In this document: positions 2,508 to 61,225 of the stretch, one piece after another
Layout: every line of letters begins with the position of its first letter
Position numbering within the stretch: the first letter of the stretch is position 1
NCBI GenBank assembly: GCA_038046765.1
Contig: JBBSVN010000003.1
Coordinates: forward strand, 32,001 to 96,000
Length of the DNA: 64,000 nucleotides
Origin: Candidatus Micrarchaeota archaeon
Lineage (GTDB): Archaea; Micrarchaeota; Micrarchaeia; Anstonellales; Bilamarchaeaceae
Direction: 5' to 3'
Made by a program: the position numbers and the translations under genes
Notes under the pieces: model-generated
The model's input: only the letters and a program-made list of their open reading frames with translations
What the model was told of the DNA's origin: nothing
Database searches by the model: none

Positions 2508-3983
2508 ATGTCATTTGAACAAAAAGAATTCAAAAAACCAGAATTTACAAAAATAAATGATTACATCTGGGAGATTCCAACTAGTTTTAAACAAGGTATG
2601 CGTGTTCCAGCAAGAATTTACGCAACAAAAAAGATACTCGATGCAATAGATTTACATGTTTACGATCAAATTACAAATGTTGCAACGCTACCTGGAATTG
2701 TAAATCATGCCTATTGTATGCCTGATGGCCACTCTGGGTACGGATTTCCAATTGGCGGAGTAGCTGCAATGGATATTAACAATGGCGGAGTAATTTCGCC
2801 AGGAGGAATCGGGTTTGATATTAATTGCGGTATGCGTTTAATCACTACAAATCTAACTATAAAAGATGTTCAACCGAAACTAAAAGAATTAATCGATCTT
2901 TTATTTAAGCGTGTTCCAGCTGGAGTTGGAAGCGAAGGATTTGTAAAAATGAACAAAACTGAATTTAGGCAGGTTATTGAGCAAGGAGCCAGGTGGTGCG
3001 TAGACAAGGGCTACGGTTGGCAGGAAGATTTGGAAGTAACTGAACTAAACGGTTGCTTCGAAGACGCAGATAATACAAAAGTAAGCGGCAAAGCCGTTGA
3101 ACGTGGTATGAATCAAATCGGAACACTTGGTTCAGGAAACCATTACCTAGAAATACAACATGTAAAAGAAGAAAATATAATCGATAAAGCGCTTGCTAAA
3201 AAATGGGGCATATTCCCAGATCAAATCGTTATTATGTTTCATTGTGGTTCACGTGGTTTTGGTCACCAGGTTGCAACTGATTATCTTAATCTTTTCTTAA
3301 GTGTTATGGAAAGTAAATACAAAATAAAGATACTCGATCGAGAATTAGCATGCGCTCCGTTTAATTCTCCTGAAGGCCAGGATTATTTTAAAGCAATGAA
3401 ATGCGCAGTTAACATGAGTTTTGCAAATAGGCAAACAATCGTTCAAAGAATAAGGGAAGCATTTTCAACTGTTTTTAAGGTTGATTCTGAAAAACTTGGT
3501 ATGAAACAAGTTTATGATATTGCACATAATCGGGCTAGCGTTGAAAAACATTTAGTTGATGGATCATGGAAAGAATTAGTTGTGCATAGAAAAGGAGCAA
3601 CCGCAGCCTTTGGCCCAAATCGACCCGAAGTTGTTGCTAAATACCGAGAAGATGGTCAACCAATCATGATCGGCGGAAGTATGGAAACTGGAAGTTACTT
3701 ACTTTCTGGTTTAGAATCTGGTGCTCAAACCTGGTACACAACAGCGCATGGTAGCGGACGAACGATGTCACGAACACGAGCTAAAGGCCAGTTTAGGGGA
3801 GACGAGCTACTAAAAGACATGGAAAAGCGAGGAATTTATGTTAAAAGCGTTTCAAATGCTGGAGTTGCTGAAGAAGCGGGCGCTGCATATAAAGATATTG
3901 ATGAAGTAATCGAAGCAGCTCATCTAAGCGGAATATCTAATAAAGTTGTTAAATTAATTCCGATTGGGAATGTTAAGGGGTAA
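2508..3983 (+). CDS. rtcB: RNA-splicing ligase RtcB
   Basis: MPDGHSGYGFPIGG, GFDINCG, GTLGSGNHYLE, HRKGAT, HGSGR motifs; ATG at 2508 preferred over upstream TTG. Confidence 0.97.
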   Translation: MSFEQKEFKKPEFTKINDYIWEIPTSFKQGMRVPARIYATKKILDAIDLHVYDQITNVATLPGIVNHAYCMPDGHSGYGFPIGGVAAMDINNGGVISPGGIGFDINCGMRLITTNLTIKDVQPKLKELIDLLFKRVPAGVGSEGFVKMNKTEFRQVIEQGARWCVDKGYGWQEDLEVTELNGCFEDADNTKVSGKAVERGMNQIGTLGSGNHYLEIQHVKEENIIDKALAKKWGIFPDQIVIMFHCGSRGFGHQVATDYLNLFLSVMESKYKIKILDRELACAPFNSPEGQDYFKAMKCAVNMSFANRQTIVQRIREAFSTVFKVDSEKLGMKQVYDIAHNRASVEKHLVDGSWKELVVHRKGATAAFGPNRPEVVAKYREDGQPIMIGGSMETGSYLLSGLESGAQTWYTTAHGSGRTMSRTRAKGQFRGDELLKDMEKRGIYVKSVSNAGVAEEAGAAYKDIDEVIEAAHLSGISNKVVKLIPIGNVKG

Positions 3984-48632: not shown

Positions 48633-49040
48633 TTATCTTATTCCCGTATCTATATCGATGTCCAAATTAGTTGTTTGGTTCGGTTTAATTTCGATAGTTG
48701 CTGGTAAGTTTCCTGCTCCGAATCTTTGATTCTGCTTTTCAAGGTCTATTAAATATTTTCCTACGGGTAACTGTAAATTATAGCTACCACTTAGTTCTGG
48801 TTTGATTATTGCGATTTTGGTTGTTTGGTCTAAGTTCCAAACATATAATTGCCATGCCTTATAAGTTTCATTTGTAGGTTGACATCTTGGATCTGGTGGA
48901 TAACGTTCAACAGGACAAATTGGGCCAATTGTAATTCTTCCGTTTAGCGTTCCCTTTTCCAAAGGTATAGTTTGAACACATCCGAAAATAAGTAGTAATA
49001 TCGAAAACACTAATGCTAAAAAGATTAGTTTTAGTTTCAT
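48633..49040 (-). CDS. Lipoprotein, carboxypeptidase-regulatory-like fold
   Basis: IFGC lipobox; GPICPVE...IDTGIR. Confidence 0.75.
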   Translation of the reverse strand: MKLKLIFLALVFSILLLIFGCVQTIPLEKGTLNGRITIGPICPVERYPPDPRCQPTNETYKAWQLYVWNLDQTTKIAIIKPELSGSYNLQLPVGKYLIDLEKQNQRFGAGNLPATIEIKPNQTTNLDIDIDTGIR

Positions 49041-49071
49041 ATGCTTAAGAATTAGTGCGAATTAATAATAG

Positions 49072-49223
49072 TTCGCTACGCCCCGAGGACAGTTATGAAC
49101 AGGTTAACCGTTCATCTGTCCTTAGTTCTCATTAACATTCGCCCCGAGGATCTAGTAAACGACGTTTCGTTAACTGTCTCCTCTGTGCTCCGCTCAACTG
49201 TGGTTTCGCTACGCCCCGAGGAT
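49072..49223. repeat. Three direct copies of the tRNA-Asn 3' end
   Basis: cgccccgagga at 49079, 49140 and 49212; 49072-49089 is identical to 49205-49222 over 18 nt. Confidence 0.8.
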
Positions 49224-49325
49224 GACTCGAACATCCGACCCCTTGATAACTATCTTTTGTTTAAGCCTATATCTAGACTTTAAACTGTTAACAGTCAAGT
49301 GCTCTACCTACTGAGCTATCGAGGC
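49212..49325 (-). tRNA. tRNA-Asn(GTT) with a 41-nt intron (49248-49288) at canonical position 37/38
   Basis: GCCTCGA/TCGGGGC acceptor, CTTGA/TCAAG anticodon stem, GGATG-TTCGAGT-CATCC T arm, BHB helix CTGT/ATAG. Confidence 0.93.
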
Positions 49326-49663
49326 TTAAGTATTTGCCAGTTATAAACTCCTTACTAAAAGAAAAGAGCACGTTCTTATGATTTACCTGTTAGACGCAGC
49401 ACTATTAAAATACTAATGACTGCGTTAGCCGTTTACTAGTTGCATTAATTAACTTAGTTCTAGAGAATATAAATTAATCCCAAATCAATTTATTAAGCTT
49501 TCGTGTAAATTAGTAATAAATCTGCGTAACAAATCAGCTAAAGTATCATTTTTATAAAAACAATAGCTATATATACCCCATTATCTATATATATTATTTA
49601 ATAGTAGAATTTCTAAGAAATTAGAACCAAACTATAATAAAATAAAATATAGGTGAATAAGTA

Positions 49664-49804
49664 ATGGCATACGAAGGAGGAGACAGAACAATGTACGATG
49701 CTACATGTTCAAAATGCGGTCAACCATGTCAGGTACCATTTAAACCATCAGATGGTCGACCAGTTTACTGCAGGAATTGTTACAAACCAAAATCAAGATT
49801 CTAA
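49664..49804 (+). CDS. CxxC-x17-CxxC zinc-ribbon small protein; not in track
   Basis: AGGTGA SD; MAYEGGDRTMYDATCSKCGQPCQVPFKPSDGRPVYCRNCYKPKSRF. Confidence 0.92.
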   Translation: MAYEGGDRTMYDATCSKCGQPCQVPFKPSDGRPVYCRNCYKPKSRF

Positions 49805-49877
49805 TCTTAATTTTAAAACAATTTCAGCATTTTTTTAATTTTTTCTTTATTTTTTCTTTTTATTAAAATAAATAGAT

Positions 49878-50864
49878 CTAATTTTCTCTAGACGTCATAT
49901 AATTAGTTAAATCAATTAATACTTGTTTAGCATGGCTTGTGTTTAATACATCTAAATTCTTTTTTGCACTTTCAATTAAATCTCTGGCTTTTTTGTCTGC
50001 TCTTTCAATTGAACCATACTTCTTGAAAAGTTCAATCACATACCTTATTTCTTTTTCTCCAGCTTTTCTTGATTGTAAAATTTCTTTAAGCCTTTTTGAC
50101 TCATCGTTTGTTGTTTTTTCCAGAGTATATATTACCATAAGAGTTCTTTTACCCTCAGTAATATCGCCGCCTATCTCTTTTTTATACTTCTCAAAATTTC
50201 CGGTGACATTTAATATATCATCTTGAATTTGAAATGCTTTTCCTATATTTTGCCCATATGTTTTAAGCGCTTCTCTTTCTTTTTGCGATGAATTAGCTAA
50301 GAACGCTCCGAGTTCGCAGGAAAATGCCATAAGTTCAGTAGTTTTTCCATCGATCATAGATATATACTCGCTTTCGCTTATGCTAAATTTATTATTTTGA
50401 TGCCAATCAAGTTCCCTTCCTTGGCCTTCAACAACTTTCTTAAAAGTCAAAGCGTACATTTTTTGTACTTCTTGTAACTTTGCGGGTTCTAAGTCCAGAT
50501 GAGTAATCTTTTGCCAGATCAAAGTATAAAGTGCGTCTCCTGAGTTAAGTGCAATAGGTAATCCATATTCTATATGTAACGTTGGTTTACCGCGCCTAAA
50601 TTCCGAATTATCGCAAATATCATCGTGAATTAGGGTAAAATTGTGGAATAGCTCGATTATTGCAGCGGCTTTAATTATTTTTTTAGGATCGCCGTTGCAG
50701 ACTTTATTGCATAAAATTGCCAAAAGAGGTCTTATCCGCTTACCTCCTCTTTTAATATACTCTAAAAGCATACCATAAACTTCTTTCGGTTCATTTGCAA
50801 GCGTTCGTTCGATTTCTTTTTCAATTTCTTGCATTTCTTCTTTTGCAATTTCGTAAAAAGACAT
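49878..50864 (-). CDS. Polyprenyl (GGPP) synthase
   Basis: GGKRIRP, HDDICD, RRG, FQIQDD, EGKRT. Confidence 0.95.
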   Translation of the reverse strand: MSFYEIAKEEMQEIEKEIERTLANEPKEVYGMLLEYIKRGGKRIRPLLAILCNKVCNGDPKKIIKAAAIIELFHNFTLIHDDICDNSEFRRGKPTLHIEYGLPIALNSGDALYTLIWQKITHLDLEPAKLQEVQKMYALTFKKVVEGQGRELDWHQNNKFSISESEYISMIDGKTTELMAFSCELGAFLANSSQKEREALKTYGQNIGKAFQIQDDILNVTGNFEKYKKEIGGDITEGKRTLMVIYTLEKTTNDESKRLKEILQSRKAGEKEIRYVIELFKKYGSIERADKKARDLIESAKKNLDVLNTSHAKQVLIDLTNYMTSREN

Positions 50865-50869
50865 TAGAA

Positions 50870-51175
50870 TCACTTCTTCACGATTTGTTTGTGGCTACAT
50901 TTATTACAAATAATTTCGAAACAATTTAACTTACGGTTAAAACTTACCTTAACCGTTTCTTCTAAAACCCATAAGGATTGGCATTTTCTGCAAAACTTTT
51001 GTTTTTGTGCCTCGCTTAATCGAATTTTATATTTTTTAACCATTTTCCATGCTAGCTCAATGTAGCGATGTGCAAGTTTTTTATCAACATTATAAACCTT
51101 TTCGGCTTCCTTTATATAAATATCAATCGCATCTTTTGCGATATTCTTTATAAATACTTTCTTATCATTCTTCAC
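50870..51175 (-). CDS. rnp4: RNase P protein Rpp21-like (component 4)
   Basis: LAHRYIELA...KIRL...FCRKC...CNKC. Confidence 0.8.
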   Translation of the reverse strand: MKNDKKVFIKNIAKDAIDIYIKEAEKVYNVDKKLAHRYIELAWKMVKKYKIRLSEAQKQKFCRKCQSLWVLEETVKVSFNRKLNCFEIICNKCSHKQIVKK

Positions 51176-51180
51176 TATTA

Positions 51181-52026
51181 GTGATCAATTTGGAAGATTT
51201 TATATATCAATACTATCTAAAGCCAATAATAAATGGCGAAGGGTATAACCCAATTAATACTGCTACTTATGCAATAATTGCAATAATCTGTTTATACTTG
51301 ATTTTTCTAGCGTTTAAAAAGTATAACTTAAAGGTCGACCGTAATTTCGTAAAAGCAGTGTTTCCATTCGTACTTTTTGGTTCTACAGTTCGGGTGGTTA
51401 CTGATGCTATAACAAGCGGTGTGTTTAAACCCGTAACTATCGTTCACGAGCTTATTTTAAAATCTGGAATATACAATTACAGTTATTTTACGGTTACTCC
51501 TGGAATTTATATTATAGTTGCATTCTTGCTTTTTGCTTCTATGATCGTACTAAAACTACTTAAAAAGAGCGAATATTTAGGCTATGTTGGTGCAGTTCTT
51601 TTTGTATTTCATCTGTTACTTCTGATTCCTTTTATGACTTATTGGGTCAATTTGATTCCAGTTTTAGTTTTAGCACTAATTCCTGCTTTAATCGCAAGTC
51701 GCGTCTTTAAAAATGATTTTTCAACTTTAATGGTAGCCGGGCACGCGCTAGATGGGGCTGCAACCTTCTGGGTTATCGATGTTTTTGGGCCAAGCGTAGG
51801 TTTAAAATATTTCGAACAACACGTACTAGGTTCAGCTATAGGAGACTTCTTTGGTACTTATTTTGCTTTTTATCTGGTTAAAATCCTAATTGTGTTTGGA
51901 GTCTCTTATTTACTAATAAAAGAAAAAGAAGATGAAAACTTAAAGAATTTTGTTGCCTTAGCTATTGCAATTATGGGATTTGCGCCTGGAGTTAGGGATA
52001 TTCTTAGAATGCTTGTTGGTGGCTAA
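51181..52026 (+). CDS. DUF63-family membrane protein
   Basis: GYNPINT, HALDGAAT, YFEQH, GFAPGVRD. Confidence 0.85.
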   Translation: MINLEDFIYQYYLKPIINGEGYNPINTATYAIIAIICLYLIFLAFKKYNLKVDRNFVKAVFPFVLFGSTVRVVTDAITSGVFKPVTIVHELILKSGIYNYSYFTVTPGIYIIVAFLLFASMIVLKLLKKSEYLGYVGAVLFVFHLLLLIPFMTYWVNLIPVLVLALIPALIASRVFKNDFSTLMVAGHALDGAATFWVIDVFGPSVGLKYFEQHVLGSAIGDFFGTYFAFYLVKILIVFGVSYLLIKEKEDENLKNFVALAIAIMGFAPGVRDILRMLVGG

Positions 52027-52038
52027 TTTTAATTTAAG

Positions 52039-52626
52039 TTGATTAACTTGATAGTTGGAATCGATCTAGCTGGTAGCGAGAAACGAGATACTGGATTTTG
52101 CGTAATCACAGATAAACTAGCTAAAGTTCAAATTCTTAATACAAACGAGCAAATAATTGAAAAAATTACAGAATTAGCAGACTTGATTCGCATTGTATGC
52201 ATTGATGCCCCCTTAACTTTACCTTCCGGAAGAATTTCTCTAGAAGAAAATAATGGAATTCATTTTAGGCAGTGTGATCTTGAACTTCGAAAATTAGGGA
52301 TTCGTTTTTTTCCAATTACACTTGGCCCGATGCGAATGCTCACTAAACGTGGAATGTTTCTAAAGGAAGAAATACTTAAGATTAATCCTAAAATTAAAGT
52401 TATTGAAGTTTATCCTGGGGCGAGTTACGATATTTTTAAAGTTAATCGCAAAGACGAAAAGCAAATAATCAAATGGATAAAATCTTTTGTAGAAATAAAA
52501 GATCTCGCATATACTCAAGACGAACTCGATGGAATTTGTTGTGCGATTACTGGGAAGTTATATTTGGAAGGTAAAGCTAGGGGGATTGGGAACGATGACG
52601 GAAAAATAATCATTCCAATTATTTAA
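52039..52626 (+). CDS. DUF429 RNase H-fold nuclease-like protein
   Basis: GIDLAG, IDAPL, IEVYP, DELDG. Confidence 0.85.
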   Translation: MINLIVGIDLAGSEKRDTGFCVITDKLAKVQILNTNEQIIEKITELADLIRIVCIDAPLTLPSGRISLEENNGIHFRQCDLELRKLGIRFFPITLGPMRMLTKRGMFLKEEILKINPKIKVIEVYPGASYDIFKVNRKDEKQIIKWIKSFVEIKDLAYTQDELDGICCAITGKLYLEGKARGIGNDDGKIIIPII

Positions 52627-52628
52627 GC

Positions 52629-53408
52629 TTACCTTATATCAACTGGTCCAGCTAAAACCATCCTAAAGGAAACGTTCCCTGTTTGGTCAAAGAATTCCAT
52701 GCAAGGCGAATCATTAACTCGATGGGATTTTCCATTAGGCATTCTTAATACTGCATTGGTATCAACTGGTGCGCCGTTTTGATTCGGCATTACTGCATAC
52801 TTAAGATCTTGGTTTGTTGTTTGTCCTTCAACCCGAAAGTTTGAATTTATTGCAGAAACACTAGGTTTAATTGTTACATATCCTAAGGAATCCATTACAT
52901 GTGAATTTGTTTGTCGGTCTAATGTGTAAGTAAATGCGCCTTGATAAACTGCCATATTTATGCTTACAGGTATTCTTGATCCATTTAAATCATAAGAAAA
53001 AGCTAGAAGCGGTCCGTTATTAGTAACCGTTTGAGTTTCAATATACTTTCCGTTTGGTAATCTACCATATTGCTTTCCATTTGATGCATCAAAAACAATC
53101 TCACTAACTGAATAATACCTATTATTGGGTGCCTGTCCTTGGTTTATTATAAATGAACCGTCGATACTTGTTAGTCTAAAAAGTGTTCCTTGCGTTACGT
53201 TAGTTTGAGTTTCTCCGTCTCTAGTATAAGTCCAAGGACCCTGAATTCCCATTGCAGTTATCTGTTGTCTTGATACTTGCAAATATCTTTGTAAATTAGC
53301 TGCAGTTAATTCTTCCGGTAGTTCCTGTCTTTTTCTTGGTCTTGCTGCAAGTTTTTCTTCAATTGCTGGAGGTTTTACTTCTGGTTGCTTAAACGTTGGC
53401 GTTGCCAT
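52629..53408 (-). CDS. Hypothetical protein, beta-rich
   Basis: GGTGA SD then ATG at 53408 (MATPTFKQ). Confidence 0.7.
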   Translation of the reverse strand: MATPTFKQPEVKPPAIEEKLAARPRKRQELPEELTAANLQRYLQVSRQQITAMGIQGPWTYTRDGETQTNVTQGTLFRLTSIDGSFIINQGQAPNNRYYSVSEIVFDASNGKQYGRLPNGKYIETQTVTNNGPLLAFSYDLNGSRIPVSINMAVYQGAFTYTLDRQTNSHVMDSLGYVTIKPSVSAINSNFRVEGQTTNQDLKYAVMPNQNGAPVDTNAVLRMPNGKSHRVNDSPCMEFFDQTGNVSFRMVLAGPVDIR

Positions 53409-53480
53409 AAAAATATCACCAACGTAATTGGGGGGGGGCAAAGTTTATAATTCTGTCTACAAATTCTGCAGAATTTGGAG

Positions 53481-53538
53481 ATGTCGCAAAGAAACGTCTT
53501 TGCGAACATGCTCGTGAAGGGTGCTCCTCTTCACGACA
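53481..53538. repeat. 58-nt twin-hairpin element, copy 2
   Basis: atgtcgcaaagaaacgtctttgcgaacatgctcgtgaa-N11-ttcacgaca. Confidence 0.8.
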
Positions 53539-53663
53539 GCCAGAGAAGACCTTCTGCTCTTCTCTGGATTTTGTGTTCGCGAGTTTAGTGTTTTGGATTT
53601 TTTGTTCAAAATTCCGAACACTTTTACCACTTTCTGGTCGATTTTTCGAACACTTTTTGTTTT

Positions 53664-54398
53664 TTACAAGCTTTCCAAAAACTCTTCTTCTAAGAAATGT
53701 AATTTTCCCGGAACAATTATTGCAAAAGGCGATTTACCTAATTGATCTACCTTGGTTAATAGTTCTTCTATTTTTCCATAATTTATTTTCTCGTCCTTTT
53801 CTCCAATTCTTGATAAAACAGCAATTGATTTATTCGTCAAAAATTCTTCTGTATCTGTTTTCTTTATTAGTTCCAGTCCGAGTTTAGCTTCCATCGGTTC
53901 TGGTTGCGTATCTAATAAAACCAGTGTATGTGCTCCTCTTTCTAAGTTTTCCTTAATTAGATTAAACCATGAATCAGGTTTATACTTCTCTCTTGGTGTT
54001 GCAATCGAAGCTGTTTTTCCAAATTTATATATTTGTAATCCGCATTTACCAGCTGCTGCTACAAAAATCGAAGAATTATGGATAACAAGCGTTTCAATTT
54101 TTGCCTTTTTCATATCTATAAGTAATGCGCTATGCGTTGTTGCGGTTAAAGGATCGCCACCACAAAGTAATGCAATTCTTTTCTCCTTAGCTCGTTTAAC
54201 TAGAAAATCACTTTCAATTGATTCGCGTTCAAGTAGGTTTATTTTCTTGTCTAACCTTTTTTCCAGTTCTGCTATTTTTTCCTTTTCCATTGGCAAGGTA
54301 TACGCTTCTATATATATTTCATCACACTTTTTAAGTTCTTCCATGCCTAACTCTGTTAAATCAAATGCGATTCCAGTACCGATTAAAGTGAATTTCAT
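53664..54398 (-). CDS. dph5: Diphthine synthase
   Basis: EAYT, GDPLTATTH, GLQIYKFG, HTLVLLD, LHFLEEE. Confidence 0.95.
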   Translation of the reverse strand: MKFTLIGTGIAFDLTELGMEELKKCDEIYIEAYTLPMEKEKIAELEKRLDKKINLLERESIESDFLVKRAKEKRIALLCGGDPLTATTHSALLIDMKKAKIETLVIHNSSIFVAAAGKCGLQIYKFGKTASIATPREKYKPDSWFNLIKENLERGAHTLVLLDTQPEPMEAKLGLELIKKTDTEEFLTNKSIAVLSRIGEKDEKINYGKIEELLTKVDQLGKSPFAIIVPGKLHFLEEEFLESL

Positions 54399-54438
54399 GA
54401 TTTATTATTGATAAGTTAATAATTAATAGTTGAGTCAT

Positions 54439-54879
54439 ATGTCTACTAAACCCAAATACAAACCAAAGCCACCTAAACCATCTGCAAAAGTTCGTGCAGA
54501 AAAGGATATTATGCTTGCTACACCTACTGCCATGGCAAATATTGCAAGAATGCGCAAAGATCGAATGAAAAGGTTACCTAAAGAAGAGCTGCTTGTTAGA
54601 AATTTAGATGATGCAAAGCTTAATTACTCAAGGGTTTTAGATACATTATTTGTCTTAGGCAGAAAAGACCATGATGAATCAATAAGATTACTTGCGTTAA
54701 TTGCGCTATTAAATACTTATGGAAGAATTTTAGACTCAAAAACAGTACTAACTGTTTTTAGTGTCCGATTGCCTACTATTGATGGTTCTTTTGAAGTAGA
54801 TTTAGCTAAAAATAAGGTTACTTTTTCTTCTTTTAGAGACCAGATATTTGATATTTGCGATCTTTTAAAAACAAGCTAA
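54439..54879 (+). CDS. Basic orphan protein, paralog A
   Basis: Shares TPxAMA and GSFxVDLA motifs with the next ORF. Confidence 0.65.
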   Translation: MSTKPKYKPKPPKPSAKVRAEKDIMLATPTAMANIARMRKDRMKRLPKEELLVRNLDDAKLNYSRVLDTLFVLGRKDHDESIRLLALIALLNTYGRILDSKTVLTVFSVRLPTIDGSFEVDLAKNKVTFSSFRDQIFDICDLLKTS

Positions 54880-54905
54880 ATAGATTAATTTTAATGGTTG
54901 ATCTT

Positions 54906-55322
54906 ATGCGTGAAAAAATTCAAGTACACAGGAATAACCCAAAGCCGCTATCCAAAGAAGCTAAAATAAGAAGAAAAAGAATCCATGCAGACATAATTGT
55001 TACACCTAGAGCAATGGCGCGTGCAAATACAGAAAGACGAAAACGTTTTGCTAACTTTCCGCCTGCAATAGATTTTGATACAGTAAAAACAGAAACACCA
55101 GAAAATATTAAAAAAGCTAGAAAAGCAAGGAGTTTATCTCAAAATCAGGATGTTAAGGATGCATTAACTGTGCTTATAGATTTATATAATAAAATAATTG
55201 AATTAGGGGAAATAAAATTATCTCATCAAATTGGCAGCTTTGTTGTTGATTTAGCTGCTGGTACAATAACGAAGATAGGATCTTCTAATAAATCGTTCAA
55301 AATCGGAGAACTTTTAGATTAA
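54906..55322 (+). CDS. Basic orphan protein, paralog B
   Basis: TPRAMA...GSFVVDLA; start may be 54894 or 54906. Confidence 0.65.
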   Translation: MREKIQVHRNNPKPLSKEAKIRRKRIHADIIVTPRAMARANTERRKRFANFPPAIDFDTVKTETPENIKKARKARSLSQNQDVKDALTVLIDLYNKIIELGEIKLSHQIGSFVVDLAAGTITKIGSSNKSFKIGELLD

Positions 55323-55338
55323 TAAAAATTAATTTTAA

Positions 55339-55374
55339 GACGCGGTATTTAAGGAGTAGATATTTTACCGCGTC
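55339..55374. terminator. Hairpin between converging transcription units
   Basis: gacgcggta...taccgcgtc, 9-bp stem. Confidence 0.45.
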
Positions 55375-55399
55375 CTAGTTTTTCTTTATAGAAAAGTTT

Positions 55400-55738
55400 G
55401 CATACTATTCGCTTTAGGGTCCAAGCAACCAGCGTGTGCTTTGCTAATATCTAACCAGACTTCTCTCGCGATACGTCTGTCCTTGATACCGGGCATTAGA
55501 CAGCAAGGTCAGAGGTTTAAGACTTGCAATAGATTATATTCTAAATGCACTGTTACGAATTCCCATTTACAGATGCACAAGATTCCAAGGACAATTGTAT
55601 AGGCCTCAAACTTTTAATGGATGGCTCCTAGTTTCCTAAGATTTTTTGTTTTACCGCTCCATCATACTTGGTTTATCCAGCGAATAATATGCGTTGAATG
55701 CAAGAGCATTCAATCCTTCAAACATAAGCCCGAAGGGA
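55400..55738 (-). ncRNA. Large structured ncRNA candidate, class unknown
   Basis: Gap with no ORF in the track; 14-bp closing helix, multiple stems with G-U pairs favouring the minus strand, GNRA loops, TATA-like TTTAAAT about 25 nt upstream. Confidence 0.7.
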
Positions 55739-55817
55739 ATATTAATACAAAAGAAAGATTTAAATAGATTTATTTTTACCTTGGAGAACTAGTTTCACAT
55801 TGTTTTCCTTAGACTAA

Positions 55818-56186
55818 CTAAAAAATTAGTTTATCTCCGATTAGGATGTTATGATTCTTTGTAAAATTAGCGTTTACTTCTAAGATGTATTTTGCTGATT
55901 CTGATGAACAAACCGTTTGAGATGGAAACATCGAAGAAGAAAGTTTTTCTATCGTAATTATTCTTTTATCTTCTGAAATAAAAATAACGTCCAGTGGAAT
56001 TAGTGTAAACATATTCCATATTTTATAGTTGCCTGATTTGTCAAAGATAAATAACATTCCCTGGTTTTTTGCTAAGGATTTACGAAACATTAATCCAATT
56101 ACTTTTTTTATAAAAGTGTCTGCCACTTCGAGTTCGAGCGATATCTCCTTTGATTTAGTTTTTATTAAAATTTTTTTAGTAAACAT
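55818..56186 (-). CDS. DUF192 protein
   Basis: EVADT...GLMFRKSL...GMLF...PLDVIF...YILEVN. Confidence 0.9.
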   Translation of the reverse strand: MFTKKILIKTKSKEISLELEVADTFIKKVIGLMFRKSLAKNQGMLFIFDKSGNYKIWNMFTLIPLDVIFISEDKRIITIEKLSSSMFPSQTVCSSESAKYILEVNANFTKNHNILIGDKLIF

Positions 56187-57120
56187 ACTCAACAAATCTC
56201 GCACGCTCTTGTTTATTGTTCGAACTTATAATAAGTGAATTTGTAGTTATTTGATTCTCATCCTTTCTAACTCCCTTTAGTAAATCGCCATCAGTAACGC
56301 CTGTTGCGATAAATGTCATTTCTCTTCCTTTTGCTAGTTCGTCTATATTGTAAATCTTATCTAAATCAGTTATTCCCATTTTGTGCGCTCGTTCCTTTTC
56401 ATTATCATCTTTGCATTTTAATCTTCCTTCAAAGTATCCTCCTAATATTTTTAATGCAACTGCAGTAATCGTTCCTTCTGGTGCTGCACCAATTCCTAGA
56501 AGCATATCTACATTGCAAATCTCAAAAGCAGTAGTTACTCCTCCAAACACATCCCCGTCAGTTATGAGTTTTACATTTGCGCCCTTTGCCTTTATTCTAG
56601 AAACGATCTCCGCATGTCTTGGTCGATCTAGGACAACAACCGTAATTTGATATAATTCTTTACCTGTTTTTTTAGCAATTGCATCTAAATTTTCTTCAAC
56701 CGATTTAGATAAAGATACAACATTGCCAATTTTAGGCCCAACTGCTATTTTTTCCATGTAAACATCTGGGGCGTGAAATAAATTCCCTTCCGGAGCTGCT
56801 GCAAATACGCAAATCGCATTTGGTTTATTTTCAGCACATAAATTAGTTCCTTCTAAAGGATCAACGGCAATATCTACCTTTAAACCGGTTCCTTTGCCTA
56901 ATTTTTCGCCAATAAAAAGCATTGGCGCTTCGTCTCGTTCGCCTTCTCCGATTACTACTGTTCCGTCAAATTCGATATCATTAAACTTAGCGCGCATCGC
57001 TTTAGTTGCTGCATCATCCGCAGCGTGTCGATCATTTTTACCAATCCAAGGGTAAGACGCGATTGCTGCTGCGATAGTAACTTTTAGGAATTCTGTTTCG
57101 AGTTGTTTAGTTATTTTCAT
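56176..57120 (-). CDS. glpX: Fructose-1,6-bisphosphatase class II
   Basis: VIGEGERDEAPML, DPLEGT, LDRPRH, DGDV, TGVTDG. Confidence 0.96.
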   Translation of the reverse strand: MKITKQLETEFLKVTIAAAIASYPWIGKNDRHAADDAATKAMRAKFNDIEFDGTVVIGEGERDEAPMLFIGEKLGKGTGLKVDIAVDPLEGTNLCAENKPNAICVFAAAPEGNLFHAPDVYMEKIAVGPKIGNVVSLSKSVEENLDAIAKKTGKELYQITVVVLDRPRHAEIVSRIKAKGANVKLITDGDVFGGVTTAFEICNVDMLLGIGAAPEGTITAVALKILGGYFEGRLKCKDDNEKERAHKMGITDLDKIYNIDELAKGREMTFIATGVTDGDLLKGVRKDENQITTNSLIISSNNKQERARFVEYVY

Positions 57121-57141
57121 GTAAATTACCTTTTGTGGATT

Positions 57142-58155
57142 CTATTTCGTATTATAAACTCCCTTCATATGCTCAATCGTAGTTGGTACGTAATCATAAG
57201 CGTGTCCAGCTGAACCAAATGCAATAAATCTTTCCTTAATTACTTTTTGCATTGCTTCCCGAGCTGGAGTTAAATATTCCCTTGGGTCAAATTTATCTGG
57301 GTTTTCATAAAGAAATTTTCTAACTGCTGCAGTTGAAGCGAGTCTTAAATCAGTATCAACATTTATTTTCCTAACTCCCGCTGCTATCCCCTCTTTAATT
57401 GCCCATAAAGGAACGCCATAAGTTGGTGCTAGTTTTCCGCCGTATTTATTTATCTGTGCAAGTAACTCTTGTGGAACTGAAGAAGATCCATGCATTACCA
57501 TATGTAAATTAGGACATCGTTTATGAATTTCACGAATAATATCCATTGCAAGTAAGTTTTTATCTGGGTCTGGTTGTACTTTAAATTTATAAGCGCCATG
57601 AGATGTTCCAATAGCAACTGCGAGCGCGTCAACACCCGTTTCATGAAGAAACGTTTCAACCTGATTCGGGTCAGTTAAATGAATTTTTCCAGAACCTACT
57701 CCATCTTCAATCCCACCTAAAGTTCCAAGTTCTCCTTCAACTGTTACCCCGAATTTATGAGCATATTCAACTGCTTCTTTGGTTACCTTTACGTTTTCTT
57801 CATAAGTTGTTGGAGTTTTCGCATCTTCTTTTAATGATCCATCAAGCATTACTGAAGTAAAACCCAAGGAAATTGCTGTTTTAACTGATTCCAGATTGTT
57901 TCCATGGTCTAGGTGTAGTGCGATGGGTATTTTCGGGTATTTCTCAACACAAGCCATCATGATATTTCTCAAAAATATAAGATCGCTGTATTTTAACGCA
58001 CCACGAGAAGCGGCCATTATAACTGGAGAAGAAACTTCTTCGGCTGCACGCATTATCGCTTGCGCCTGTTCCATGTTGTTAACGTTAAAATGCGGTACTC
58101 CGTACTGTTTTTTTGCTGCTTCATCTAAGATTTGTTTCATAGGTACTAAAGGCAT
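57142..58155 (-). CDS. fba: Fructose-bisphosphate aldolase class II
   Basis: HLDHG, VEGELG, GTSHGAYKF, MHGSSS, KINVDTD. Confidence 0.96.
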   Translation of the reverse strand: MPLVPMKQILDEAAKKQYGVPHFNVNNMEQAQAIMRAAEEVSSPVIMAASRGALKYSDLIFLRNIMMACVEKYPKIPIALHLDHGNNLESVKTAISLGFTSVMLDGSLKEDAKTPTTYEENVKVTKEAVEYAHKFGVTVEGELGTLGGIEDGVGSGKIHLTDPNQVETFLHETGVDALAVAIGTSHGAYKFKVQPDPDKNLLAMDIIREIHKRCPNLHMVMHGSSSVPQELLAQINKYGGKLAPTYGVPLWAIKEGIAAGVRKINVDTDLRLASTAAVRKFLYENPDKFDPREYLTPAREAMQKVIKERFIAFGSAGHAYDYVPTTIEHMKGVYNTK

Positions 58156-58283
58156 AAGTTTCACCTTGGATTATTATTTTTGCAACTCTTTTAACACTTG
58201 ATAAGAAGGAGTTGAATTCGACCCCTTTGAAATTATTATTTGTTTATAAATTTTATATTGGCTACCTTATTTATATCTCTTGT

Positions 58284-59150
58284 TTAACTTTTTGAAGCTT
58301 CTTTTTCAACTAAAATTTTCTTATTTCTTACTCTTACTTCTGTTAATTCATTATAATTAGCTTGTGTCGATACGCTTGTACCTGTTTTTTCTTCTAGTTC
58401 TTTCCTAGCATTTCCCGCAACAGTTCCGCCTTGAACTGCAGCGTCCTTATTTTCCGGAAATCCTTGCGCATCCTTCTTTTTCGCAATTTCGGTTGTTGAA
58501 GCTTCACCTAGCATGGTAAATATCAGTTCAAGATCTGTCATGTGATCACGCAAATTATCTTTTGGATTATCAAGTGCTTTGAAATTTTTGTATTCTGATG
58601 GAGTCATACCAAATGTTGCCTTGCTAATTTCAGATGTAAGAATAGCATATTCTAAATGTTCTTTCACACCGCGTTTTTTCCATTCTTCTGTTAGTTCATC
58701 CCGAACTGCGATTCCACGCATTCGTTTTTCAATCCAAGAATCAGAATAACCTTTTTGTTTATATATTTCACGCATACGTTTTGTCGCGATTTCAGGATTT
58801 TCAATCTCTTCAAGTCGTTCATAACCCACTTTGGCTAACCAGAGTTTGAAAGGTTCTGCTTTGGGTGATGGGATTGATTGAATTAAACGAAATAATTGCT
58901 CGGTATCTGCAACATCGGTTAGACGCATTTTGCCATCAGTAGCTTCCATTTTCAAACTGTGACAATTTGTCACGGTTTCATTTCCTTGAGCTTTTAAACG
59001 CTCTTTAAGTTTACGCCAGTAAGCACCGGGATCAACACTGTCGGTTAAAACCGCAAGAACATCAACAATAGAAAAATACCATTTATGGTTAACTTCGTTC
59101 CAAATTCTACGAACTTTTTTTTCTTCAAACAAGATTATGCCGTTGCTCAT
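58284..59150 (-). CDS. Bro-N domain protein
   Basis: KWYFSIVDV...YWRKLK...IQSIPSPKAEPFKLWLA...LRDHMTDLELIF. Confidence 0.88.
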   Translation of the reverse strand: MSNGIILFEEKKVRRIWNEVNHKWYFSIVDVLAVLTDSVDPGAYWRKLKERLKAQGNETVTNCHSLKMEATDGKMRLTDVADTEQLFRLIQSIPSPKAEPFKLWLAKVGYERLEEIENPEIATKRMREIYKQKGYSDSWIEKRMRGIAVRDELTEEWKKRGVKEHLEYAILTSEISKATFGMTPSEYKNFKALDNPKDNLRDHMTDLELIFTMLGEASTTEIAKKKDAQGFPENKDAAVQGGTVAGNARKELEEKTGTSVSTQANYNELTEVRVRNKKILVEKEASKS

Positions 59151-59244
59151 ATTATACGCCTTTTTTATCAGAAAATTCGTTATTTTACTTAAGCAGGTTA
59201 AGGAATAAAAATGTACTTGCATTTAATAATCCATTGATGATTCT

Positions 59245-60141
59245 ATGAATTCCAAGATACTTGCACATTACCTTGATTTTTCTACGTATACCTATCCCGG
59301 ACTATACTTATCAAAGCTAAAAAATGATTTACCTGATGAGGTTAGATCTATAGGAGAGTTTGTTAGAAGGCAAATAATTCATCGTTCAACCTTGAAAGAT
59401 GGAAATATTGGAACGAATTTAGATAAAAAATTTGGAGATATGAATAAAGTTGCATGGTACAAACAACCAGAAGATGATATTTTAACAACTGCTTCATCAA
59501 TGTTCGCTGAATTATACCATCGCAATTCACTTGGTTTTATAAAAAATAGAAAAGAAAATGACAAATTAATTCTTACCTGTAGGTCTACCTCAATTTTAAT
59601 GGCCTCGATTTTAAAATCAAAAAGTATTCCATGCAGGGTTCGTTCTGGTCATGCCCCATATTTTGATATGGGGGAACTAAGAAATGTTAGTACTGATCAT
59701 TGGATAAATCAATATTGGAATTCTAAAGAAAAAAGATGGATTACTATTGATGTTGATGGAAGCTGGAGTATGAACGAACCTCTTAATGCTTACGATTTAC
59801 CTTTGGGTAAATTCTATTTCCCTGCTGATTCTTGGCTTGGCATTCGTTCTAGTATACTAGATCAAAATAAATTTCGGAATGCAGCGCCAGAAAAAGGTTT
59901 AATTACTGTTTGCTGGGCATTATTTTACGATTTTCACTGTTTAATGAATGATGAGGTTATTTACCTTCATGTCCCAGAACCAGCTACTTATATAAAATTT
60001 AATAAGTTGTCTAAACAAGAATTAGAAGAAATTGATAATTTAGCTGTTTTAATGCAAGACCCAGATAAAAATTTCTTTGACTTACAAAAAATTTGGGAAA
60101 CTAATAAGAAATTTAGGTTGTTAAAGGGCGGATTATTATAG
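59245..60141 (+). CDS. Transglutaminase-like domain protein
   Basis: TCR...RVRSG...DHW...W...D catalytic triad pattern. Confidence 0.8.
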   Translation: MNSKILAHYLDFSTYTYPGLYLSKLKNDLPDEVRSIGEFVRRQIIHRSTLKDGNIGTNLDKKFGDMNKVAWYKQPEDDILTTASSMFAELYHRNSLGFIKNRKENDKLILTCRSTSILMASILKSKSIPCRVRSGHAPYFDMGELRNVSTDHWINQYWNSKEKRWITIDVDGSWSMNEPLNAYDLPLGKFYFPADSWLGIRSSILDQNKFRNAAPEKGLITVCWALFYDFHCLMNDEVIYLHVPEPATYIKFNKLSKQELEEIDNLAVLMQDPDKNFFDLQKIWETNKKFRLLKGGLL

Positions 60142-60166
60142 TAAAAATATTTCGTGTTGTTCAAAT

Positions 60167-61225
60167 CTATTTCACAAAATAAAACAACACCGCAATAATC
60201 AAATACATTATCACTAACTGTGCTCCTTCAAACCAGTTCGTGCTTTCATCTGATGAAATTTCGTTTACAATTAATACACTAGCAAATACTGCAATTATTT
60301 CAAATGGAGTAAACACCAAATCCATAGGTTGCTTCATAACTATTCCTGCTAATACTGCAACAGGAGCTACAAACAATGCAATCTGCAAACTAGAACCAAC
60401 AGTTATCCCTATTGCGACATCAAGTTCATTTTTCATTGCAAAAGATACTGCGGAAATATGTTCAGCTGCGTTACCTACTATTGCAACTATTACTGCACCA
60501 ATAAATAGTTCAGTTAAATTAAAACTTTTTGCAAATGTTTCTATCTGAGCAACAAATATTTCGCTGATTAATGCGAGAAAAACTGTTGATATTAGAAGAA
60601 CTAAAATTGCTTTATTCCGACTCCACTTTGGTTTTTCATCTTCATGACTTTTATGGCTATGACTGGTAAATAAATGACTATGCGTTTTTAGAGAAAACAA
60701 TATGCTAAGTAAATATAACGAAATTAATAAAATTGAAACAATAATGCTTAACCCTAGTTCGTCTTTTGGATTTCTTACCTGATCTGGCATTAAATGGAAT
60801 AAACTAGGAATCATAATGCTCATAAAAGCAATTAAAAGCATGGTTGCATTTAGTCCTGCCAAATGCTTTGAAAATTTCTGTTCCTTGTATTTTAAACCAC
60901 CTAGTAACAAACTTAGTCCAAGAACGAAAAGTATATTGCCAATTATACTCCCTGCTATCGATGCTTTAACTAAGTCAAGTAATCCTTTATTGATTGCCAA
61001 AAGTGCGATTATTAATTCAGCTGCGTTTCCAAATGTCGCATTTAATAATCCGCCAATATGCCCGCCATATATTTTAGCTAATTCTTCAGTTGCTTCGCCC
61101 ATTTTAGCGGCTAATGGTAGAATCGCAAGTAATGAAACTACAAAAAGTATCGTGCTGTTTGTTCCGATATAATTTAACGCGAACGCTAAAAATACAAAAA
61201 TAAATAAAATATCCTTAATTTGCAT
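60167..61225 (-). CDS. cax: Ca2+/H+ exchanger
   Basis: Two GNAAE alpha repeats, GSSLQIAL, NWFEG. Confidence 0.93.
   Translation of the reverse strand: MQIKDILFIFVFLAFALNYIGTNSTILFVVSLLAILPLAAKMGEATEELAKIYGGHIGGLLNATFGNAAELIIALLAINKGLLDLVKASIAGSIIGNILFVLGLSLLLGGLKYKEQKFSKHLAGLNATMLLIAFMSIMIPSLFHLMPDQVRNPKDELGLSIIVSILLISLYLLSILFSLKTHSHLFTSHSHKSHEDEKPKWSRNKAILVLLISTVFLALISEIFVAQIETFAKSFNLTELFIGAVIVAIVGNAAEHISAVSFAMKNELDVAIGITVGSSLQIALFVAPVAVLAGIVMKQPMDLVFTPFEIIAVFASVLIVNEISSDESTNWFEGAQLVIMYLIIAVLFYFVK

Follow-up and report, generated by a model that had tools for sequence, protein, structure and literature searches.

The window, a stretch of 64,000 nucleotides from a Candidatus Micrarchaeota genome, carries a gene for a large structured RNA on its minus strand. 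A sequence-only reading had placed such an RNA, with its own promoter, in a gap between ORFs, and every element that it named was found in place on the minus strand. The extent that it gave held only in part: the conserved unit is 55400-55740, while a hairpin at 55339-55372 that it had included was not kept in five aligned relatives. This strong, separate hairpin lies between the RNA and a convergent ORF and is possibly a terminator. The gap had been described as free of ORFs, and none was conserved on either strand among 30 homologues.

From its sequence, a BRE/TATA-like promoter was recognized at 55758..55777 (minus strand; TATA at 55766-55758), and most copies had a similar motif upstream, which agrees with the proposed promoter. 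Of 30 distinct copies, 22 had a TATA-like motif 40-100 nt upstream of the 5′ splice site, compared with ~10% of random positions; the motif pattern was tuned on the same copies in which it was counted. The predicted precursor is a transcript of ~340 nt (55400..55740, minus strand) with its start placed by the TATA position. Its 5′ exon forms two leader hairpins on the minus strand (55694..55736, at 55715-55736 and 55694-55713), as judged from the fold and from relatives; leader hairpin 1 was found in most relatives and leader hairpin 2 was optional. A U-rich, terminator-like sequence on the minus strand forms the trailer, directly after the 3′ strand of the outer helix P1a (55400..55413).

The RNA gene lay just downstream of a DUF192 gene in 9 of 19 genomes and upstream of a diphthine-synthase-like gene (dph5) in 7 of 19, the neighbours in relatives being read by eye and not by profile. 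This site, beside DUF192 and/or dph5, was kept across several genera. Two convergent ORFs without a Pfam match (54430-54879 and 54855-55322, plus strand) lie between the RNA and dph5; relatives carry different genes there.

Fold and covariation

When 55395-55740 was folded, none of 100 shuffles was as stable as the minus strand (z = -4.89), against 7 of 100 for the plus strand (z = -1.55), which supports the proposed structured RNA on the minus strand. The overall fold is a compact four-way junction with four arms. The helices described earlier, namely a 14-bp helix, its 7-bp extension and stems with GAAA and GCGA loops, were all present. The 14-bp helix is the outer, or exon, helix P1a, in which a 5′ strand (55679..55692) pairs with a 3′ strand in the 3′ exon (55400..55413). 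Its sequence is free and its pairing is kept: 10 of 10 pairs had changes on both sides, and at least 6 of 8 pairs were formed in 20 of 30 copies. The extension is the inner helix P1c (55665..55671 with 55421-55427), which a 7-nt junction loop would cap once ligated. All 30 copies had 5-6 of 6 P1c pairs, and the pair 55668:55424 covaried (E<0.005).

The remaining arms are also on the minus strand. Arm P2 (55614..55664) consists of an A-rich internal loop and a variable GAAA hairpin (55626-55641), and its pair 55659:55619 appeared in the covariation test. Arm A (55515..55611) has two lower helices, 55611-55603/55523-55515 and 55599-55594/55530-55525, supported by covariation and conservation; above them, an internal loop leads to an upper helix, which is capped by an apical loop bearing a near-invariant GGG (55564-55562). 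Arm D (55428..55509) is a long irregular helix with an internal loop and a terminal GNRA hairpin (55456-55479), which we take to hold a loop-E-like internal loop.

Two interleaved 9-bp helices had been reported; both were present, and the pseudoknot pairing was kept in nearly all copies, alongside compensatory changes. In PK1, 55585..55593 of the arm A internal loop pairs with 55478-55486 of the arm D internal loop. Six of its pairs were kept in 20-21 of 21 copies outside genus g3, and five in 6-8 of 8 g3 copies after a one-column shift of the alignment by hand. In PK2, the other side of the arm A loop (55532..55535) pairs with the other side of the arm D loop (55453-55456), and its four pairs were kept in 26-28 of 29 copies, three of them with changes on both sides. 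Both strands of one internal loop pair in this way with both strands of the other.

Changes on both sides were seen at 68 of 90 proposed pairs in 20 copies (0 of 500 shuffles), and 86.9% of cells paired, against 30-43% for slid partners, on a structure drawn from the same alignment. A tree-aware null (our own implementation, 200 simulations, 29 copies) gave 14 pairs at E<0.5, 8 of them at E<=0.01. All 14 were in proposed nested helices, which covary beyond this null; among the 29 copies, no pair of PK1, PK2 or the kissing contact described below reached E<0.5. The test excluded L074, L098 (duplicate) and L070 (a deleted copy); the genomes G001 and G120 were omitted from alignment A4.

Bulge-helix-bulge and the probable circular product

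The sequence-only reading was right about the RNA itself and missed its ends and its product. The 14-bp and 7-bp helices are separated by 7-nt gaps that form a 4-bp helix flanked by two 3-nt bulges, the motif called bulge-helix-bulge (BHB). On the minus strand, its 5′ half (55672..55678) comprises helix 55678-55675 and bulge 55674-55672, and its 3′ half (55414..55420) comprises helix 55420-55417 and bulge 55416-55414. The canonical endonuclease cut falls after the second bulge nucleotide. The rule fits the intron of tRNA-Asn (49212-49325), which has the same geometry. The predicted cuts are 55673/55672 and 55415/55414. They give exactly 55672..55415, which, with the RNA contigs described below, defines a mature circular RNA of 258 nt (55415..55672, minus strand). 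The leader hairpins and the 14-bp helix of the earlier reading are real, but they lie outside the mature circle.

Predicted circles measured 250-264 nt in 28 of 30 distinct copies. With the 4-3 geometry (bulge length) assumed and pairing counted, 16 of 30 distinct copies formed all 4 pairs of the central helix and the other 14 formed 3 of the 4; the first outer pair was present in 25. The window copy has an A-C mismatch in this helix, and forcing the BHB costs 2.7 kcal/mol relative to the predicted minimum. Of 40 near-invariant positions, 38 were inside the circle. Because conservation sits in the circle and the outer helix keeps its pairing only, we regard the exons as a processing handle.

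Parts of the stretch occur in six RNA sequencing runs, which belong to three studies. Four of the runs (X1, X3, X4 and X5) were examined over 49001-61000; X2 and X6, the latter with only 4% of words, were not among these. The RNA was present in RNA libraries as assembled contigs, which carry no strand. A closed 258-nt circle was assembled in all four runs, from two studies and in two sequence variants; circularity is read here from assembled contigs, which show neither strand nor level. Runs X1, X3 and X4, which come from two samples of one study, each have a 288-nt contig that shows no difference from the window, spans 55414-55671 and links 55671 back to 55414. Its length is that of the 258-nt circle plus a 30-letter assembly overlap. 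In X5 (the second study), a relative with 16 differences was found, and the loose ends of its 288-nt contig close the same circle. For this variant, 12 differences were listed, and a pairing partner was assigned for 7; of these, 6 leave the pair intact or improve it and 1 disrupts it. A sequence search of the genome did not find the joined form. The junction has two letters of ambiguity, so that three cut registers yield a 258-nt circle, and the canonical cut is the middle one; this 2-nt overlap would also be compatible with template switching by reverse transcriptase. Most of the DNA around the gene had no contig cover, and the runs were picked for containing the stretch, so contig depth cannot rank genes.

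The enzymes for such processing are encoded. The genome has a 407-aa tRNA splicing endonuclease matching PDB 4FZ2 (E 2e-129), which we take to be the epsilon2 enzyme of ARMAN-2. RtcB is encoded in the window at 2667-3980 (plus strand), ~51 kb from the RNA gene, and the genome also encodes a Lig_C-domain RNA ligase. The BHB is described, in the cited excerpts, as the motif recognized by the archaeal splicing endonuclease (PMC5829648, PMC3239211), and epsilon2 enzymes of Micrarchaeota as cutting both strict and relaxed BHBs (PMC3239211). We conclude that tRNA-type splicing very probably turns the RNA into a circle.

Two further observations concern this machinery. There is a second ORF with a tRNA endonuclease domain, of 175 aa (L104, G000 C10:76880-77122), and similar short matches are common across the family; the two genes with this domain occur throughout it, with a match in 98 of 99 genomes. 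The tRNA-Asn gene (49212-49325, minus strand) has a 41-nt BHB intron, was found by Rfam and missed by ARAGORN, and an unspliced contig of it was seen in run X4.

The splice helix includes a CCC that was kept in 8 of 30 copies where its partner in the precursor is not G, which suggests a second job for this CCC. From the sequences, we propose that ligation frees the CCC to kiss the near-invariant GGG of the apical loop, in which case kissing would be possible only after splicing; we regard this proposal as evenly balanced. The three G-C kissing pairs (CCC/GGG) hold in 28-29 of 29 copies. At a fourth position, a junction C, found in 6 copies, goes with a loop G; in the other copies the loop base is A, G or U. 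The covariation of the kissing contact amounts to one event in one clade, with the fourth pair being U-U in 6 of 29. Anticodon loops of tRNA follow the U33 rule; the 7-nt junction loop follows from BHB geometry and has no U33, and mimicry of an anticodon loop was rejected.

Distribution and known RNA families

Homologues were found, as the sequence-only reading had suggested checking, in one family of Micrarchaeota, and the searches gave no full-length copy beyond it. By BLAST, 29 of 61 relatives matched at E<=0.1, mostly through short AT-rich pieces, and five were real homologues. With a covariance model of the 3′ part, 19 of 99 family genomes, in 10 of 23 genera, proved to carry the RNA, in 22 copies altogether. 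The full-length model matched 14 of 73 family genomes and none of 77 genomes of other families in the order. Beyond the family, 124 genomes of the phylum gave one 60-nt piece only (E 0.007), and the same piece was met in 133 genomes of the class. We treated this match (G225) as chance, as it was partial and no BHB was seen. With laxer filters, 40 hand-picked genomes lacking a full-length match gave short pieces in 5 (E 0.007-0.86) and nothing of full length. A search pattern that catches 16 of 22 known copies found 15 loci in 185,579 species genomes, all titled Candidatus Micrarchaeota, and 9 copies in metagenomes. The latter were untouched by training and scored 186-241 bits with the model. 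The same pattern, with its catch of 16 of 22, found no match in viral contigs. More distant relatives could escape these searches.

The window copy was 46-66% identical to other copies. In genus g3, the RNA was at other sites, and three genomes had two copies, which were dispersed, inverted or in tandem. Among RNA-less genomes, a DUF192 search matched in 8 of 10, none with the RNA within 1.5 kb, and G010 has an intact empty site in which DUF192 and dph5 sit almost side by side. In the RNA tree, copies group by host genus (12 changes; minimum 10, shuffled mean 19.2, 0 of 200), which argues for mostly vertical inheritance with loss. The gene thus appears to be accessory, not essential, inherited mostly vertically and open to loss.

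Some copies are unusual. In the tandem pair of G002 (L061 1150-1795), each copy has a BHB and the second lacks the promoter motif; one precursor might give two circles. The copy of G001 (L070 1501-1725) lacks ~60 nt of the core and keeps the BHB, giving a 190-nt circle, unless this is an assembly error. The copy of G120 (L069 1501-1849) has insertions and a 314-nt circle. These last two variants mark expendable and expandable sites of the RNA.

Rfam gave no match to the RNA, so its novelty stood. In the whole window only tRNA was found; 55395-55740 gave two unrelated weak hits (E 3 and 4.9), and ten homologous loci including the tandem pair gave two other unrelated hits (E 7-8) at E<=10. A very diverged RNase P RNA, offered earlier as an alternative, was not supported. 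The genome search with RF00373 matched contig C5 (E 8.5e-13) and not the RNA locus, and the RNase P RNA there was full length with both P4 strands. Letters resembling CR-I and CR-V vary among the homologues, and the Rpp21 gene called nearby is 4 kb away. SRP RNA, canonical or permuted (RF01857), was likewise rejected, with a full-length SRP RNA on contig C2; both canonical RNAs are therefore present elsewhere in this genome (1.5 Mb, 90% complete), which also has a full 23S rRNA on contig C15. The RNase P RNA (263 nt, L032) scored 48 bits against an Rfam cut-off of 84, and the SRP RNA (260 nt, L001) scored 75 against 96.5, so standard annotation would miss both.

Profiles of the circle, plain and midpoint-permuted, had no other genome match below E 2. 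We had supposed a resemblance of the circle to motifs of 23S domain V, and rejected it, as it was not collinear and the circle profiles missed the genome's full 23S. A tRNA intron was excluded because no tRNA matched at the locus and the exons are variable hairpins. A tmRNA was excluded because ARAGORN found none, a circle has no 3′ end, and no ORF is conserved. Translation of the circle itself was discarded, since neither its length modulo 3 nor its ORFs are conserved among homologues. The covariance models of raiA, OLE, ROOL and GOLLD gave no match. Omega/HEARO RNA was rejected, the neighbours (in relatives, as read by eye) being DUF192, dph5 and variable genes and not TnpB or IscB of an IS200/IS605 element. 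Among the 40 near-invariant positions there were no C/D or ACA boxes such as guide RNAs carry.

The search for a partner protein used co-occurrence of Ro60/TROVE, reverse transcriptase and endonuclease-domain genes, and found none; Ro60/TROVE was absent from this 90% complete genome. Two reverse transcriptase genes in the genome (L117 1291-2363 and L118 1291-2516; G000 contig C4) are both interrupted at an AG-repeat, so that each consists of two ORFs; they look like diversity-generating retroelements with a possible frameshift. Many reverse transcriptase matches in the family share similar frames of 220-250 aa.

Proposed origin and role of the circle

We propose the following biogenesis. The TATA/BRE promoter would drive a precursor of ~340 nt whose ends pair into the outer helix, the BHB and the inner helix. 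An endonuclease of the epsilon2 type would cut both bulges and RtcB would seal the 258-nt circle, leaving the variable flanks as disposable exons. The circle would fold into four arms, of which two would be locked side by side by PK1 and PK2. Ligation would release the CCC from the splice helix to kiss the GGG loop, so that splicing would complete the fold. We hold the promoter-driven precursor, its excision and sealing at the BHB and the four-arm pseudoknotted fold, taken together, with high confidence. The circle may then be a structural RNA that withstands nucleases and acts as a scaffold for proteins or its own copies, like raiA, OLE or ROOL; by analogy, we consider a scaffold its most likely role. 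The whole chain, from a stand-alone gene through a BHB-excised circle and a ligation switch to a stable accessory scaffold RNA, is the account that we favour, with moderate confidence. A bolder version seems to us rather doubtful: splicing would be an on-switch, the junction loop completing a triple-pseudoknot core of a catalytic or self-assembling circular RNA in which a double internal-loop crossover joins the long arms.

Other readings share part of this evidence. With the same biogenesis, the circle might be a ribozyme or bind a ligand or an RNA in trans, which we consider unlikely. Such a role would fit with a four-way junction, a pair of pseudoknots and the many unpaired bases among the 40 near-invariant positions, and the GGG loop could read the CCA end of tRNA or the anti-Shine-Dalgarno of 16S rRNA instead of its own junction. 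However, no Rfam ribozyme matched, BHB splicing explains the ends so that self-cleavage is unneeded, the GGG has a complementary partner in cis, and the RNA has no linked substrate gene. False back-joined cDNA can arise from structured RNAs whose ends pair, and the circle is known from contigs; it could be an artefact of template switching or assembly, or a by-product of splicing, with the linear transcript or the joined exons doing the work. This is the least probable of the alternatives. In two variants from two studies, the joint coincides with the register at which the enzyme cuts, and the contigs are self-closing; copies with as little as 46% identity retain the BHB geometry, and exons whose sequence varies freely are unlikely products.

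The patchy presence (19 of 99 genomes), the clean empty sites, the two copies in three genus-g3 genomes and the two reverse transcriptase genes would be expected of a selfish or recently tamed element, such as a free-standing BHB intron or a retrozyme-like or viroid-like RNA exploiting the host splicing enzymes. We find this improbable, because several genera share the DUF192/dph5 site, copies group by host genus in the RNA tree, and the dispersed duplicates carry the promoter and were thus copied as DNA. Moreover, reverse transcriptase genes are not enriched (6 of 19 carriers, 22 of 80 others), viral contigs gave no match to the pattern that catches 16 of 22 known copies, and no ORF is conserved. 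It is more improbable still that the RNA belongs, in circularly permuted or strongly diverged form, to a known family, whether RNase P, SRP, an rRNA domain, a group I/II intron or others, including omega/HEARO RNA, raiA, ROOL, GOLLD and OLE. The permuted SRP RNA of Thermoproteus is circularized by the same route, according to the cited excerpt (PMC4731332), and the RNase P and SRP RNAs of this genome are divergent, scoring under the Rfam cut-offs. Against this, the genome has full-length RNase P, SRP and 23S RNAs at other loci, plain and midpoint-permuted profiles found nothing, Rfam at E<=10 gave unrelated weak hits only, and the raiA topology, as described in the cited sections, differs (PMC12968392).

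The account that we favour has partial precedents. The SRP RNA of Thermoproteus tenax is permuted and circular and is made by BHB splicing (PMC4731332). As described in that excerpt, it too has its own TATA promoter, a short leader and trailer forming the BHB, a cut by the splicing endonuclease and a circle as the product, and its ligation creates a loop needed for function, as proposed here. Unlike the present RNA, it is a rearranged universal RNA with known partners that replaces the canonical gene; here the canonical SRP RNA is present, no family matches, and the gene is accessory and sometimes duplicated. Besides one permuted SRP RNA, the cited literature names tRNA introns, precursors of rRNA and single mRNA introns as BHB substrates. 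The archaeal circles described there comprise tRNA introns (including the C/D guide intron of tRNA-Trp), circular 16S/23S pre-rRNA, mature circular 23S and the HVO_1309 5′ UTR intron (PMC7714728, PMC12558985, PMC12918454). The present RNA shares with them the 3-4-3 BHB, the junction at the bulges and the encoded enzymes, but it has no host tRNA, rRNA or mRNA, and its exons are variable stubs with conservation in the circle. Like raiA, OLE, ROOL and GOLLD, it is stand-alone, non-coding, multi-junction and pseudoknotted; those RNAs are bacterial or from phage, their circularity is not described in the cited sections, and at least ROOL is dispensable in one strain (PMC12968392, bioRxiv 10.1101/2024.12.08.627333). 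PK1 of raiA joins the P3b apical loop to a linker and its PK2 comes from one linker, as given there, whereas here two internal loops pair by both strands (PMC12968392).

No known self-cleaving ribozyme in Rfam matched the RNA, which speaks against a viroid-like cccRNA or retrozyme. Viroid-like cccRNAs, as the cited part of one report has them, are also small, highly paired, protein-free circles of ~250 nt in metatranscriptomes (bioRxiv 10.1101/2022.07.19.500677). Retrozymes are comparable small circles. Unlike both, the present RNA is chromosomal with a promoter, inherited by genus and branched, not rod-like, and host splicing accounts for its ends. The literature excerpts described neither this RNA nor a stand-alone BHB-circle gene of unknown function, the supplements of cccRNA catalogues being outside their scope. 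The circle could stand in such catalogues, e.g. that of bioRxiv 10.1101/2022.07.19.500677, without its gene.

The RNA had been put forward as a possible new class of large ncRNA. The lack of an Rfam match, the homologues, the covariation and the presence in RNA libraries bear this out: it is a real, conserved and uncatalogued RNA family, and its splicing route is already known. It would be tractable, with a 340-nt transcript, a solved structure for a close relative of the endonuclease and a size that fits cryo-EM. A BHB-flanked intergenic RNA together with circular contigs would serve as a search rule for more such genes. If our account is true, this gene exists for the sake of an intron-like circle, and its exons have shrunk to a handle for processing. 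Large ornate RNAs of unknown function are few, and this one would be an archaeal and circular addition to them, from streamlined genomes with little DNA to spare.
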